5,781 nt of DNA from a virus (lineage: Duplodnaviria; Heunggongvirae; Uroviricota; Caudoviricetes). The position numbers and the translations under genes were made by a program. How positions within the stretch are numbered: position 1 is the first letter of the stretch; every line of letters begins with the position of its first letter. Of this stretch, positions 1 through 5,781 are shown piece by piece. The notes beneath the pieces are model-generated. The model was not told the DNA's origin, did not search any database, and worked only from the letters and a program-made list of their open reading frames with translations. The DNA is taken from IMG/VR virus record IMGVR_UViG_2744054627_000015, positions 1 through 5,781 of that record; one strand, given 5' to 3'.

Positions 1-1062
1 TTCTCCCAAACCAAGGTATGCGAGAAGACCTGCTACATCCTTTCCACTCAAATGAGTCAGCGTATTGTCCAGCGGTTGTTTACCTGCCAGCGCATTAAGC
101 ATTGTCGTGGCAAAGTTCGGATCATTCCCCAGTGCCGCCGCCAGTTCGTTCAGTGTATCCAGTGCCGCAGGTGCAGAACCCACCATTGCCGCAATCGCCG
201 ATTTCACAAATGCCGTGGTGGCAATCTGTGTATTGTTGACCGACTGTGCCGCAGTAGGTGCTGTTGGCGTTCCGGTGAGTGCCGGACTCGACAGCGGCGC
301 TTTCAGTGCCAGCGCATTATTAATAGTGGTACTGAATTTCGGGTCATTGTTAATGGCTGCGGCAATTTCTTTCAGTGTGTCCAGCGTGGCTGGCGCACCG
401 TTAATCAGAGCAGTAATAGCGGCCTGAACAAACTCTGTGGTCGCAATCCGAGTGGTGTTATTTCCTGCTGCAGGCGTCGGCGCTTTTGGTTCTCCGGTAA
501 ATGTCGGATTATGTTTCTGCGCATACTGGGTATGAGGATCTTGTGCGGCAATGTGGTTTCTCATCTGGTCATCCACATACAGCTTTAATTCCAGGACTTT
601 ATCATCCACGTATTTACGGGTTGCCAGCACTACAGCAGGGTCGATTTTCAGGGTGATATTGTCCGTACTGCTGGTAATCAGCACCATGCGCACGGTCTGG
701 GTGCGCCCGCTGCCTTCAGCCAGTTGCGGCTTATAGCTTTCCGGGCAGTTGCCCACGGCAATCAATGCCCCGGACTCATCAAACAGGCCCACTTCACGTA
801 TCCACCAACCGCCCTCGTTTTCAGGGATCACCTGTTCAGCAATAATCTGGCTGCTGTTCTGCGGGTCGATATAAAGCATATTCAGCGCAGCCCGGCGTTT
901 CTCATTTACCAGTGCCGTCTGCTTTGCGTCCGGCGTTGGCAATACTCCGCCGCCATCGCCCACCGCCATATGGGTAATTTTTAGCGGCACACCGAGCGCG
1001 GCGGCGCTGGCAAGTTTCGCCGCGCCAATATCCGTCAGCAGGGTATAAAATTTTGTGCTCAT
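1..1062 (-). CDS. H: Phage tail fibre protein (P2 gpH-like), N-terminal 354 codons; the gene continues past the window start
   Basis: Minus-strand ATG at 1062..1060 overlaps the gene I stop (ATGA). Translation MSTKFYTLLTDIGAAKLASAAALGVPLKITHMAVGDGGGVLPTPDAKQTALVNE... resembles the conserved N-terminal domain of P2-family tail fibres as recalled. The frame stays open to position 1. It is absent from the ORF track only because no stop codon falls inside the window. Confidence 0.88.
   Translation of the reverse strand, partial: MSTKFYTLLTDIGAAKLASAAALGVPLKITHMAVGDGGGVLPTPDAKQTALVNEKRRAALNMLYIDPQNSSQIIAEQVIPENEGGWWIREVGLFDESGALIAVGNCPESYKPQLAEGSGRTQTVRMVLITSSTDNITLKIDPAVVLATRKYVDDKVLELKLYVDDQMRNHIAAQDPHTQYAQKHNPTFTGEPKAPTPAAGNNTTRIATTEFVQAAITALINGAPATLDTLKEIAAAINNDPKFSTTINNALALKAPLSSPALTGTPTAPTAAQSVNNTQIATTAFVKSAIAAMVGSAPAALDTLNELAAALGNDPNFATTMLNALAGKQPLDNTLTHLSGKDVAGLLAYLGLGE
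70..462 (-). repeat. Diverged tandem duplication inside tail-fibre gene H (two units of about 170 nt, 220 nt apart)
   Basis: Protein units at residues 201-257 and 276-331 align (NNTTRIATTEFVQAAITALINGAPATLDTLKEIAAAINNDPKFSTTINNALALKAPL against NNTQIATTAFVKSAIAAMVGSAPAALDTLNELAAALGNDPNFATTMLNALAGKQPL). At DNA level, 308-400 and 88-180 share runs such as ccagcgcatta. Confidence 0.6.
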
Positions 1063-1663
1063 GGATTCACTCTCATTGTGTCAATAACATGGACCGCCCC
1101 GCCTTCATGCGCGGTGCCACCGGAAATAATCGTTTCGTTGATATACGGATAGATCGTGATTTCTTCGCCAAGATAGCTGGCGGCTCCCACCCAATGCGGG
1201 CCGCTGGTCTGCAGATTGATGGACATGCCGATCATGTGGCGGCTACATGGTTTGGCATCGCTTATCAGTCGCTCAAGTTCCAGATAGGTATCTTCAGTGA
1301 TGCCCTGGTCCTGCACGCCGATATCTAGGCGAAACGTGCCCGCTGCCTCTCCGGTCTGCCACCACTCAATAATGCGGATCAGAAAGCCGAACGGCTCCAC
1401 CACCCGCCGCACGGCACTGGTGGTCCCTTTATGCTGATGAATATAAAAAGCATCCTTCACCACCTGGCGCTTGACGCTTTCTGTCCAGCCCTCGTCCCAG
1501 CGATCCACAGAGAACGCCCAGGCGAGATAAGGCAGGAAACTGACCGGACAGGTTGCCGGATTCCACAAGTCACGAAGCGGCACCTGCAGATCAGAATCCC
1601 GCTGCAGGTTTGCGCCAGTCGGCGCTCCAGTGGTGTTGAACCCGGTGGCAGCAGACTATTCAT
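1059..1663 (-). CDS. I: Baseplate assembly protein (P2 gpI-like) with an apparent 1-nt frameshift near 1598-1600; the intact body is the 174-codon frame 1059..1583
   Basis: Body frame (…LRDLWNPATCPVSFLPYLAWAFSVDRWDEGW…) resembles P2 gpI as recalled. The ATG at 1663 has a strong GGAGG (1673..1669, 5-nt spacer), sits 5 nt before the J stop, and encodes a gpI-like N-terminus (MNSLLPPGSTPLERRLAQTCSG), but in a different frame from the body. One extra C in the CCC run at 1598-1600 (G on the coding strand) would join the two. The stop overlaps the H start (ATGA). Confidence 0.72.
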
Positions 1664-2564
1664 CCGTTCCTCCGTTGGTTACGCTCCACTGCGTACATGA
1701 TGCCGCCTGTGTTTTGTTCAGGACCACATCCGCCAGAGGAGAAGCCAGCTCCACACGCTGCACACCCTCAACATGCAGGGCGGCAAAGATGGCGCTACGG
1801 CGAATATCCCGACCAAGACGCGTCTGACTGGCGATGTACTTCTGCAGGCTGGCTTTTGCCGCTGCCATTACCGGCTCTGCTTCCGGTCCCGGATAAAGAA
1901 AAATGGTGGCTTCCACGCGATACGGGATGATTTCTGCGCTGCGAACCGTAAGACGGTCAGCCACCGGGCGGACGTTCTCACTGTTCAGAGCTTTTCCCAC
2001 CACGTCCAGCAGGTCTTTTTCTGCAGTTCCATCGCCTTCGCGGCTAAGGACAGTCAGCACCACCTCTGCAGGTGCCGGGCTGGTTGCACTGGCATCCGCC
2101 ACGCGACCGTCGGCGCTTCGGGCATGAAATTCATAAGCTGCAGTTGGCCCCGCGACTGAAAGCCCTTCAAAGGCTGCAGGCACACGCAGGCGTAACGCTT
2201 CATCGCTTTCCATCACAGCTGCAACGGGCGGCACAGCGTCATTATCAGCAGGCGTCACCGTCAGGCGTTTCACGTTGTAGTTGGCAGCGAGCTGGTCAAG
2301 ATCGCCGCCCATCGCGTAAGCCACCATCACCGCCTGCGCGGCTTCGTTAATGCGCTGGCGCAGAAGCAACTCACGGTAAGCGTTCTCCTGCAACAATTTG
2401 GTGACGGGTTCAGATTCCAGTTCCAGCGTACGCATCACAGCTTCCTGCTCATCTTTCGGATGGAGCGCCACAAATTCTGCCTTACGTTCTGCAAACAGCG
2501 TTTCAAAGTCCGGCACATCCACAATCTGCGGTGCAGGCAACTGCGAAAGGTCAATCACTGCCAT
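1656..2564 (-). CDS. J: Baseplate assembly protein (P2 gpJ-like), 302 aa
   Basis: ORF-track frame 1656..2603 trimmed to the ATG at 2564, which is preceded by AGGAG (2575..2571, 6-nt spacer). N-terminus MAVIDLSQLPAPQIVDVPDFETLFAERKAEF is gpJ-like, and the length matches the 302 aa I recall for P2 gpJ. The start overlaps the 3' end of W by 14 nt. Confidence 0.9.
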   Translation of the reverse strand: MAVIDLSQLPAPQIVDVPDFETLFAERKAEFVALHPKDEQEAVMRTLELESEPVTKLLQENAYRELLLRQRINEAAQAVMVAYAMGGDLDQLAANYNVKRLTVTPADNDAVPPVAAVMESDEALRLRVPAAFEGLSVAGPTAAYEFHARSADGRVADASATSPAPAEVVLTVLSREGDGTAEKDLLDVVGKALNSENVRPVADRLTVRSAEIIPYRVEATIFLYPGPEAEPVMAAAKASLQKYIASQTRLGRDIRRSAIFAALHVEGVQRVELASPLADVVLNKTQAASCTQWSVTNGGTDE

Positions 2565-2910
2565 TCTCGGCTCCTGTTGATACGGAAAGGGAAACAGGCA
2601 CACCGTTATTACGCTGTCCGGTCAGTTCCACCACCATAGAACCGTCAAAATTGCTGTTGATGGTGATGGATTCCAGCGTCAGCCGAGGCTCCCAGCGACT
2701 CAGCGCCACATACACCGCCGACATAATCTGCAGGCGTAACGCCGGATTTTGTGGCTGGTCTATCAGCGCCGACAGCAGGGAACCATATTCACGACGGGCA
2801 ATGCGGCTACCCTGCGGCGTCAGCAGAATATCCCGCACCGACTGGCGCAGATGGTCAATATCAGTAATGGCTTTACCGCTGGTATTGTTCATCCCGATAT
2901 AAAGCGTCAT
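2551..2910 (-). CDS. W: Baseplate protein (P2 gpW-like), 119 aa
   Basis: Translation MTLYIGMNNTSGKAITDIDHLRQSVRDILLTPQGSRIARREYGSLLSALIDQPQNP... resembles P2 gpW as recalled. GGAGG (2921..2917) lies 6 nt upstream of the ATG at 2910. The ATG overlaps the V stop (ATGA). Confidence 0.9.
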   Translation of the reverse strand: MTLYIGMNNTSGKAITDIDHLRQSVRDILLTPQGSRIARREYGSLLSALIDQPQNPALRLQIMSAVYVALSRWEPRLTLESITINSNFDGSMVVELTGQRNNGVPVSLSVSTGAENGSD

Positions 2911-3485
2911 ACCGGGCCTCCGGTGGTGTCGCCACCTTTCTGGACGCCAGTATGCTGATGCGCATCAACCACGATCCCGTTAGAACTCATCGCACCGCCG
3001 CCCTGGGTAACGCCACCATTGATCACCACTTCGCTGTTAATACGTGCGCGGTCAGCCTCCAGTACAAACTCACTGGTTTTCAGGGTGATGTTGTCGACAG
3101 CCTCAATGACCATTGATTTGATGCCCCTGACATACCAGCGCCCGGTGGCGGGTTCGTATTCAAACCAGCCACCGTCAGGATATTCTGTCACGCAGGCGTC
3201 CGCCGACGTCGACGGCGGCGCGAACTGATTCGAATAGACAGCGGGCAACGCAAAGGCGGTTTCCAGATTGCCACCCAGACTCAGCAGCACCACCTGCTCA
3301 CCTTCCGATGGTTTCCACCATGTGCGGGCATTACCCGCACGCAGCGTCAGCCAGCTGATCCAGTTGGTTTCAAGGTCGCCTGTTTTCACCCGGCAAAGCC
3401 AGTTCTCCCGGTCCACTTCGGTGACTACACCAGTGCGAATCAGGTTGGTGATAAGGCGCATGATTTCGGTTAAATGTGCGTTCAT
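2907..3485 (-). CDS. V: Baseplate spike / tail protein (P2 gpV-like), 192 aa from the ATG at 3485
   Basis: Translation MNAHLTEIMRLITNLIRTGVVTEVD...KGGDTTGGPV aligns with the recalled gpV N-terminus (MNTLANIQELARALRNMIRTG...) and the C-terminal GG-rich tail. The ORF-track start at 3542 adds 19 residues with no counterpart in gpV, so the internal ATG is preferred. None of the candidate starts has a convincing Shine-Dalgarno. Confidence 0.82.
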   Translation of the reverse strand: MNAHLTEIMRLITNLIRTGVVTEVDRENWLCRVKTGDLETNWISWLTLRAGNARTWWKPSEGEQVVLLSLGGNLETAFALPAVYSNQFAPPSTSADACVTEYPDGGWFEYEPATGRWYVRGIKSMVIEAVDNITLKTSEFVLEADRARINSEVVINGGVTQGGGAMSSNGIVVDAHQHTGVQKGGDTTGGPV

Positions 3486-3530
3486 GAGAAAAACTAACCG
3501 CCATTGCAAACGCAATCGAGTAGATAGGAA

Positions 3531-3548
3531 TGTTTGATTCATGGCACA
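3531..3548 (-). promoter_or_regulatory. Candidate Ogr/Delta-type late-activator box (TGT-N12-ACA) upstream of V
   Basis: Minus strand reads TGTgccatgaatcaaACA, centred about 54 nt upstream of the V ATG. P2-family late promoters carry a TGT-N12-ACA dyad at about -55 from the transcription start, and V is the first gene of a late operon in P2. It is a single occurrence that could arise by chance, and the spacing to the ATG is tight. Confidence 0.3.
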
Positions 3549-3576
3549 ATACGTTGCTTACTTTTAAGGATATAAA

Positions 3577-4021
3577 ATGAAAGACAATTTAAATCTTCTT
3601 ATAAAAAATTAATAAGAAAGGCATTTCCTGAATTTAGCAATAAGGTAACATGGACTTTACTCACTGCAGGGATCGGTATTCTTGCACTACCTGCACCCAC
3701 ATATTTATTATTCGTAAACCTTATAATTGATTTTTACAACAAAACAACTAATTCAGAAATAAGCTTCTTAAGATTGATAGCATTACACCAAGTAGTGGGG
3801 TTGCTTTAACTTTAATTCTATCCGGGCTAGTCTTTCACCTATTAATAAAAGTCCCCCATATATACCAAGAAATTCTAAAAGAGAATAACCAAAAAGAAAT
3901 ACAGGAAAGAAAAAGAGTAGCAGACGTTAAACTTTATGAGGCATTTATTGATATTCTACCAACAACCTCGTTATCAATTGAATTCTTAAAAGACCATAAT
4001 TTTGAAAACTCCCTATCATGA
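3577..4021 (+). pseudogene. Disrupted ORF for a predicted two-transmembrane protein (about 148 aa if two single-base homopolymer deletions are repaired)
   Basis: ATG at 3577 with AAGGA (3566-3570, 6-nt spacer) opens an 11-codon ORF in frame 1. Frame 0 is then stop-free across 3576..3806 and frame 2 across 3752..4018, with no usable start codon in either. Adding one A to the A6 run (3603-3608) and one G to the G4 run (3797-3800) yields a continuous protein with two hydrophobic helices and a charged C-terminal tail. Confidence 0.4.
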
Positions 4022-4057
4022 TAATAATACAAAAGATATTAGTAATCTTGAATACGG

Positions 4058-4336
4058 GTGGGTCATGCAGATCAACATTTTCATGACAATGAAATTGAAG
4101 ATAAAGCCACTCATCTTTACAGTGAAATAATAAAGTTTAATTATTTTCTCGCTTATAAATCGCACAATATCAATAACTATATGTTTAGCATGCTTACTGA
4201 CAGAGATCGAGCTATGGTGATGGAATTACTACCTCAAACAAAGGAAAATATAAAAATAGCCAATGAGTGGAGTTCTACAATTCATCAGCTTTACTGTGAC
4301 TTTATCTCCACATGTAGGAATAACTTAGCCATATAA
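4058..4336 (+). CDS. Hypothetical protein (92 aa from GTG at 4058, or 51 aa from ATG at 4181); island cargo of unknown function
   Basis: ORF-track frame, same frame as the upstream disrupted ORF and separated from it by a cluster of stops at 4019-4051. It is Asn/Ile/Lys-rich, as expected for AT-rich DNA. No good RBS precedes either start. It ends at TAA 4334-4336, 14 nt from the convergent S stop. Confidence 0.4.
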   Translation: MGHADQHFHDNEIEDKATHLYSEIIKFNYFLAYKSHNINNYMFSMLTDRDRAMVMELLPQTKENIKIANEWSSTIHQLYCDFISTCRNNLAI

Positions 4337-4350
4337 ATCATATGCTGTAG

Positions 4351-4596
4351 TTAATTAAGACAAGTAGCGAAAAAAATATCACGAGTTATCATTTCCGCTT
4401 CGTCGTTAACACCCAAAAGGCGACGCTCTGCGTAACGGACCTCCGGCCCTTTGCGACTGACGCGATCGCGCAGGCCGTAATGGTGAACACGGGCAATGCG
4501 CTGCACCTTACCTTCAAACTGCACGCTGGCAGAATCGGCGCTGGCGGCAGTTTTCAGATATTTTGTGGTGCGTAGCTTTGCAAACATCTGACGTTT
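4351..4596 (-). pseudogene. S: 3' fragment of the tail-completion / virion-morphogenesis gene (P2 gpS-like), truncated at its 5' side by the IS
   Basis: Translation ...KRQMFAKLRTTKYLKTAASADSASVQFEGKVQRIARVHHYGLRDRVSRKGPEVRYAERRLLG... fits my recollection of the gpS / Mu gpG family (MFxKLRTxxYLK ... IARVHH-GLRDR). An in-frame stop at 4621-4623 lies inside the IS end. Only about 80 of the expected 150 codons are present. Confidence 0.55.
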
Positions 4597-4649
4597 TGTA
4601 ATGACCCACTGAAATCCTGCTCAGGTCATAATGAGTGGAGATCACAGAC

Positions 4650-5003
4650 ATGAGCATCACGATGGACGAAGAAATCAAACGTTGGACGGCCAAGCGCAAG
4701 TCCGCCTTGGTCATGGAAATCATTCAGGGCAAGACCACCGTCGCCGAAGCGGCTCGAGCCTTTGATTTGCCGCCCTCCGAGATTGAAGAATGGGTAGATG
4801 ACGCCAAACGGGGCATGGAAAACGCCTTACGGGCCAAGCCACTGGATATTCGCGAGCAGTACGAGAAGCAGCTCAAGGAACTCCAGGAAGCTTATGGCGA
4901 GGCCATGCTGGAGTTACGCGCCAGAAAAAGCTGGCCTCCCTGCTGGGCGAGGACGACAGATAGTCGCCGATGTTCAGCAGGGATTACGCGCAGAAGGTAT
5001 TGA
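4650..5003 (+). CDS. IS3-family transposase OrfA (HTH DNA-binding protein), with an aberrant C-terminal extension in this copy
   Basis: ATG at 4650 preceded by GGAG (4637-4640, 9-nt spacer). Translation MSITMDEEIKRWTAKRKSALVMEIIQGKTTVAEAARAFDLPPSEIEEWVDD...EAMLELRARK parallels IS2 OrfA (...[23 protein letters not shown]). The canonical OrfA tail KKLASLLGEDDR* is in the -1 frame after the A-run at 4925-4929. The ORF-track GTG start at 4635 was not used. Confidence 0.8.
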   Translation: MSITMDEEIKRWTAKRKSALVMEIIQGKTTVAEAARAFDLPPSEIEEWVDDAKRGMENALRAKPLDIREQYEKQLKELQEAYGEAMLELRARKSWPPCWARTTDSRRCSAGITRRRY

Positions 5004-5781
5004 TGTCTCCGTCAGCAAGCTCTGCCGCTGGTTTGGCCTGCCGCGTCGTAGTTGGTACTACCGCAGCGTCAAGGCCGCGCCCAAGCTTCAGGAGCATCTG
5101 GTCACCCCGATCAAAAACATGATTGAGGAGAACCCATCGTTCGGTTACCGGACGGTTGCAGCCCTGTTGGGGTTCAACAAGAACACGGTACAGCGCATCT
5201 TCCAGCTCAAGGGCTGGCAAGTTCGCAAGCGTCCGGTTGGGTTTCGCCCCCGGATCCAGGCCCTGCCTTCGGTGGCCTCAGCGCCCAACCAACGCTGGGC
5301 GACGGACCTATGCCGGATCTGGGCTGGTCGCGATGGCTGGTGTTCCTTGGCGCTGGTGATTGATTGCCATACCCGTGAACTACTGGGATGGCATCTCTCG
5401 CGCAGTGGTAAATCGAAAACGGCCGAGGCAGCGCTGGAGCAAGCCTTAATTGCTCGCTTCGGCAGCTTGGGACGAGTTGCATCGCCGTTTTTGTTACGTA
5501 GCGACAATGGGTTGGTGTTTACCAGCCGCAACTACACAGCACTGGTGAAGAGCTATGGGTTGCAGCAGGAGTTCATCACGCCGTACACGCCGGAACAAAA
5601 CGGCATGGTCGAGCGGGTGATCAGAACGCTCAAGGAGCAGTGTGCCCATCGGCAGAGGTTCGAGACCTTGCAGCATGCCAGTCGGGTGATTGGCGACTGG
5701 ATCCAGTTTTACAACCAGAAGCGTCCTCACCAGGCGCTAAAGATGAAAACACCGGCGCAGGCCTATGCCGAAGCCGCTTAG
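4927..5781 (+). CDS. IS3-family transposase OrfB (DDE catalytic domain); here in the +1 frame relative to OrfA
   Basis: DDE(K) signature: D at 5305-5307 (WATDL), D at 5503-5505 (RSDNG), E at 5611-5613 followed by K seven residues later (ERVIRTLK). No ATG near the 5' end, as is typical when OrfB is made only as an OrfAB fusion. The frame is open from 4798, but the part upstream of the A-run overlaps OrfA and is not considered coding. Stop TAG at 5779-5781. Confidence 0.82.
   Translation, partial: KAGLPAGRGRQIVADVQQGLRAEGIDVSVSKLCRWFGLPRRSWYYRSVKAAPKLQEHLVTPIKNMIEENPSFGYRTVAALLGFNKNTVQRIFQLKGWQVRKRPVGFRPRIQALPSVASAPNQRWATDLCRIWAGRDGWCSLALVIDCHTRELLGWHLSRSGKSKTAEAALEQALIARFGSLGRVASPFLLRSDNGLVFTSRNYTALVKSYGLQQEFITPYTPEQNGMVERVIRTLKEQCAHRQRFETLQHASRVIGDWIQFYNQKRPHQALKMKTPAQAYAEAA

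Follow-up and report, generated by a model that had tools for sequence, protein, structure and literature searches.

The window, by which we mean the whole stretch of 5,781 nucleotides (nts) that was analyzed, carries on its minus strand the tail and baseplate genes of a P2-type (Peduoviridae-like) prophage, arranged in P2 order (Table 1). It corresponds to positions 2 to 5782 of contig LSBR01000054.1 (8,248 nt) in the draft assembly GCA_001641855.1. Gene I lies between gene J (baseplate) and gene H (tail fiber) in the V-W-J-I-H block. The last 8 nt of gene J (1656 to 1663) are also the first 8 nt of gene I, and the ATG of gene H (1062 to 1060) overlaps the stop codon of gene I in the sequence ATGA (1059 to 1062); such a pair of overlaps is the pattern expected for translational coupling. 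Between genes S and V, at the position of P2 orf30, the opposite strand has a hypothetical gene that is AT-rich. In relatives this gene encodes a protein of 253 amino acids (an intact copy occupies 3679 to 4440 of a relative's locus), for which we found no match in Pfam, the PHROGs or PADLOC; in the window it is broken into fragments by four homopolymer indels. Gene S is interrupted by an insertion sequence (IS) of the IS3 family, and its 5′ part has been removed at the junction (4596/4597).

TABLE 1 Features of the window (position 1 is the first nucleotide of the window)
Feature	Position	Strand	Description or basis
Gene H, 5′ part	1-1062	-	Tail fiber, first 354 codons; gene calls on the source contig, PF12571
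Gene I body, shifted frame	1059-1594	-	...SDLQVPLRDLWNP... to stop codon TGA (1061-1059); Tail_P2_I profile positions 24-138
Missing-base site (gene I)	1595-1596	-	TT on the coding strand, AA on the plus strand; TTT/AAA in all relatives
Gene I 5′ segment	1597-1663	-	ATG at 1663 to the frameshift site; encodes MNSLLPPGSTPLERRLAQTCSG(I)
Ribosome-binding site	1669-1673	-	GGAGG, 5 nt 5′ of the ATG at 1663
Gene J	1656-2564	-	Baseplate, 302 amino acids; PF04865, annotation of relatives
Gene W	2551-2910	-	PF04965
Gene V	2907-3485	-	PF04717
Second private indel	3489-3493		A5 on the plus strand, A6 in relatives; upstream of gene V
Hypothetical gene at the orf30 position	~3580-4340	+	AT-rich; between genes S and V
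Third private indel	3603-3608		A6, A7 in relatives; hypothetical gene at the orf30 position
Fourth private indel	3764		C, CC in relatives; hypothetical gene at the orf30 position
Fifth private indel (insertion)	4011-4013		CCC, CC in relatives; hypothetical gene at the orf30 position
Sixth private indel	4060-4062		GGG, GGGG in relatives; hypothetical gene at the orf30 position
Gene S, 3′ part	4351-4587	-	Prophage tail completion
Seventh private indel	4370-4376		A7, A8 in relatives; retained 3′ part of gene S
IS3-family insertion sequence	4597-5781	+	Interrupts prophage gene S; left arm of the IS-mcr-3-dgkA-IS unit on the source contig
Eighth indel	4925-4929	+	A5, canonical element A6; within the slip site A AAA AAG of the IS

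As written, gene I is split. The ATG at 1663 to 1661, which as read from the sequence follows a GGAGG (1673 to 1669) after a spacer of 5 nt, opens an open reading frame (ORF) of 68 codons; the first 23 codons are gpI-like (MNSLLPPGSTPLERRLAQTCSGI) and specify residues identical to residues 1 to 23 of the intact protein of E. coli H1, and the rest are unrelated. The body of gpI (VPLRDLWNPATCP..., also given as SDLQVPLRDLWNPATCP...) sits in a different frame, where it was listed mechanically as an ORF of 174 codons running from a GTG at 1583 to the stop at 1059. The first-pass annotation had claimed that gene I is divided between two frames and that the ATG with its GGAGG opens a gpI-like N terminus, and both claims were borne out. 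The split is no chance pattern, because all close relatives carry gene I as one unbroken gene of 606 nt. The frame that begins with the conserved N-terminal segment is interrupted at 1595 to 1596 in the window as written; with one T restored, as in all relatives, it becomes a single ORF.

That gene I is a homologue of P2 gpI, as was also proposed at first, is confirmed by its match to the Pfam family Tail_P2_I (E = 6e-54). The restored protein scored 182 bits against PF09684 (cut-off, 20.6) over profile positions 1 to 138, and the 174-amino-acid body by itself scored 156 bits over positions 24 to 138; the best PHROG match of the gene I protein was PHROG 48. The family is shared with P2 gpI (tail protein I, a baseplate wedge component; NP_046774.1) and with Orf38 of phage 186, both of which are 56 to 57% identical to the restored protein and have the same conserved N-terminal motif, LLP.GS.PLE...C..I. 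The operon position in V-W-J-I-H and the overlapping J/I and I/H junctions are also the same. The restored protein, at 201 amino acids, is longer than P2 gpI (176 amino acids) by a C-terminal extension of about 25 residues, and the gpI of Pseudomonas phage PPpW-3 has the same extension. Within the P2 gpI family gene I is thus unexceptional, and what further sets it apart from P2 gpI, as written, is that it is split by one absent base. Closest of all is the gene for WP_058101146.1, found in P2-like prophages of E. coli strains H1, AJ1, HH194M, QML220614, TB4019, and SCU-204: the DNA of the whole gene is identical except for one T, and the flanking 4.6 kb are identical or nearly so. These copies have TTT at the site, where the window has TT, and are annotated as intact.

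About 1,030 of the 5,426 complete E. coli genomes have this region. The best matches among them were 99.9% identical to the window and exactly one base longer, and were annotated with a single 606-nt gene, "phage tail protein I." Alignment with five independent E. coli copies, each of which encodes a continuous gpI, gave the lesion as GGGATTTCT > GGGATTCT. The base that was lost is one T of a coding-strand TTT (AAA to AA on the plus strand), within relatives' codons GGG ATT TCT (G-I-S), and the intact protein reads ...TCSGISDLQVPLRDLWNP, with 201 amino acids, as in WP_058101146.1. The first-pass annotation had placed the loss elsewhere, in the C/G run at 1598 to 1600, and had proposed that an extra C there (CCCC) would make the gene intact. 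This run, which is 2 bases from the lost T, is the same (GGG/CCC) in the window and in the E. coli copies; the alignment puts the loss at 1595 to 1596, and it is AAA that restores the frame. Nor did the residue proposed on the basis of an added C, an Asp (...SGDSDLQ), survive the comparison: the residue restored is Ile24 (SGISDLQ), which, unlike Asp, is conserved in P2 gpI, 186 Orf38, a P2-like Peduovirus, and the gpI of Pseudomonas phage PPpW-3. The accompanying claim that the spacing would then equal that of P2 gpI does hold, because one base added anywhere in the overlap of the two frames yields the same length.

We searched for the deletion allele in other collections. Among the 762 complete E. 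coli genomes that carry the 86-nt core around the site, none had a perfect match to the core with the deletion; the best E. coli matches had 98.9% identity and exceeded the query by one base. A 30-mer with the deletion was found in none of the JGI/ENA metagenome contigs and in none of the IMG/VR viral contigs; the corresponding intact 31-mer was found in 59 of the former and in at least 120 of the latter. The GTDB representative genomes were uninformative either way because neither allele was present among them (0 deletion, 0 intact). The frameshifted 68-amino-acid product had no record in an index of 153 billion genes, and the 174-amino-acid product was found on one contig only, the source contig LSBR01000054.1. 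Thus, in the collections searched, the deletion allele and its products are confined to GCA_001641855.1.

The missing T is one of several such differences. Over the prophage part of the window (1 to 4596; 4,596 bases), comparison with E. coli AJ1 gave no substitutions and seven one-base indels. Comparison with E. coli H1 gave eight differences, seven single-base indels in mononucleotide runs and one substitution, and the five close copies other than AJ1 differed from the window by 1 or 2 substitutions plus seven indels. The seven independent copies came from human, chicken, yak, migratory bird, and cattle sources in the United Kingdom, the United States, China, and Viet Nam. The same seven indels appeared in every comparison, and all of them are in homopolymers and private to the window. 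Among the seven relatives themselves there were no indels at all, even at 121 to 124 substitutions (strain A37). The contrast between 7 indels with 0 substitutions and 0 indels with 125 substitutions is highly significant (P = 8e-12 by Fisher's exact test). The six prophage sites other than that in gene I were scored in six full-length E. coli relatives, because the flanks of the variable orf30-position region in the metagenome and viral loci are not an exact match. One of the six, at 3489 to 3493, is just 5′ of gene V; the counterpart region in P2 holds the late promoter of the V operon and its activator-binding site.

The remaining 2.5 kb of LSBR01000054.1 contains the mcr-3-dgkA cassette, and a second copy of the IS begins there. 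When compared to three reference plasmids, this part had six further private homopolymer indels (T7>6, A6>5, C5>4, T6>5, T5>4, and A2>3), in runs next to contig positions of about 6084, 6790, 7512, 7747, 8003, and 8130, which cut mcr-3 into ORFs of 88, 277, and 176 amino acids and dgkA into ORFs of 53 and 66 amino acids (contig positions 5867 to 7986). When these are added to the seven of the prophage part and an eighth in the IS, described below, the count for the whole contig comes to 14 homopolymer indels of one base each. Of these, 12 are deletions and 2 are insertions; their density is 1.7 per kb, against at most 1 substitution. We tabulated miscalled runs by true run length, with the count for length 2 set by hand from the alignments. 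For lengths 1 to 8, respectively, the miscalled runs were 0 of 4,419, 3 of 1,216, 1 of 313, 1 of 71, 2 of 25, 4 of 6, 2 of 2, and 1 of 1. The miscall rate therefore climbs with true run length, from 0.2 to 0.3% at lengths of 2 to 3 to 8% at length 5 and to 7 of 9 at lengths of 6 or more. This dependence is the signature of homopolymer miscalling and not of evolution.

Errors of homopolymer length in the consensus of draft assemblies are a known artifact of flow-based and nanopore sequencing. The differences on this contig are of the same kind: they are one-base indels in mononucleotide runs only, they are mostly deletions (12 of 14), they lack a matching excess of substitutions even against near-identical references, and they also strike genes expected to be intact (mcr-3 and dgkA). 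A technology of this type would presumably lie behind GCA_001641855.1. From the position of the missing base, the privacy of the allele among the sequences searched, and the run-length dependence of the indels, all observed directly, we infer that the indel pattern arose in sequencing rather than in biology. On the evidence of these sequence comparisons, the apparent frameshift in gene I is very probably a consensus error, of assembly or of base calling, in the draft assembly. One T of the TTT would have been undercalled, as happens with platforms and assemblers that mismeasure the length of homopolymers, and in the real genome gene I is most likely intact, a 606-nt gene for a 201-amino-acid baseplate protein identical to WP_058101146.1. 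A wrong base call was among the possibilities raised at the outset, and it is now strongly supported: the window has 8 private homopolymer indels, the missing T among them, and the contig has 14, against 0 to 1 substitutions. The split of gene I is almost certainly not a biological feature and belongs to a well-known class of assembly artifacts.

A consensus error in gene I does have a counterpoint. The site is a short T3 run, atypical of the long runs in which errors concentrate, and miscalls of such runs on this contig are rare (1 of 313). The main alternative is a genuine one-base deletion, with gene I a pseudogene of a prophage already made defective by the IS-mcr-3 unit in gene S. Since that interruption has left gene S without its 5′ part, gene I and the other tail genes may face weaker selection, and a genuine mutation could be tolerated. 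We consider this unlikely. With 0 substitutions relative to AJ1 in 4.6 kb, the prophage shows negligible real divergence. The number of real indels expected in 606 nt is about 0.01, compared to about 0.4 to 1 error indels at the rate found for the contig, which would give odds of roughly 30 to 80 to 1 in favor of error. In addition, mcr-3, dgkA, and the IS transposase are likewise "inactivated" on the same contig, and the deletion allele is absent elsewhere in the collections searched. The proposal of the first-pass annotation that the baseplate gene is inactivated is therefore not supported; the private, indel-only pattern points to error. If the deletion were true, it would merely add one more inactive gene to a prophage already disrupted by the IS.

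A broader version of the same idea, to which we give somewhat less credence still, is that the loss of the T is real, perhaps along with the rest of the homopolymer indels, and that a decaying prophage has lost gene I, the orf30-position gene, and the acquired mcr-3 cassette by slippage in runs. If this were true, an unusual, indel-only mutational process would have been at work. In E. coli mutation accumulation experiments, the ratio of base substitutions to small indels is about 10 in the wild type and about 5 in strains deficient in mismatch repair (bioRxiv 10.1101/346874). Under those spectra, the probability that seven events out of seven would be indels is roughly 1e-7 to 1e-6. Because substitutions exceed indels in both spectra, an indel-only branch of this size is implausible. 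We also considered a mismatch-repair mutator as the source of the indels and rejected it, since even in such a strain substitutions should exceed indels about 5-fold.

It is very improbable that the functional product is an N-terminally truncated gpI made from the GTG at 1583, as had also been suggested. The 174-codon ORF does begin at this GTG, and a gene caller annotated it so on the source contig, but the GTG has no Shine-Dalgarno sequence before it (ctgcag is upstream), and the ORF lacks positions 1 to 23 of the Tail_P2_I profile. Conservation of the N-terminal segment extends to P2, 186, and Pseudomonas phage PPpW-3, and in each of the phage matches listed that cover at least 59% of the query, the alignment begins at residues 1 to 7. 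We looked for relatives in which gpI starts at the position equivalent to 1583 and found none. The chance that programmed −1 ribosomal frameshifting or transcriptional slippage unites the two frames is negligible. A −1 shift, a direction often taken in programmed events, would be required to repair the frame, but the sequence C GGG ATT CTG lacks an X XXY YYZ slippery heptamer (the junction reads AGC GGG ATT CTG ATC), the run of just 2 nt is much too short for transcriptional slippage, and the two-frame layout is not conserved, all relatives being single-frame.

A consensus error in gene I carries little biological weight; its value is practical, for judging GCA_001641855.1. With about 1.7 homopolymer indels per kb on contig LSBR01000054.1, and probably throughout the assembly, any pseudogene, split gene, or frameshift called there should be distrusted, including the apparently broken mcr-3. 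The colistin resistance gene mcr-3 of this assembly would be mis-scored as disrupted. A search of the literature for LSBR01 or GCA_001641855 found nothing. The Malaysian pig E. coli of the paper that reported the discovery of mcr-3 belongs to another assembly, JWKH01.

The IS3-family element is the one that flanks mcr-3 on plasmids. After it, on the source contig, come mcr-3, dgkA, and the beginning of the second IS (4598 to 8248). The IS-mcr-3-dgkA-IS unit thus appears to sit within the P2-like prophage. The junction between the IS and gene S was shared by none of the 5,426 complete E. coli genomes. The part of the IS in the window is the canonical element except for a change of A6 to A5. This run is in the A AAA AAG motif in the overlap of orfA and orfB, the presumed −1 slip site, and with A5 instead of A6, orfA is out of register with orfB. 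The frameshifted OrfA product had no record in the gene index. The A5 in the window is probably a further homopolymer error; plasmid pSEV4_3_mcr3.4 also has this A5 variant of the IS, and its annotation labels the gene "frameshifted."
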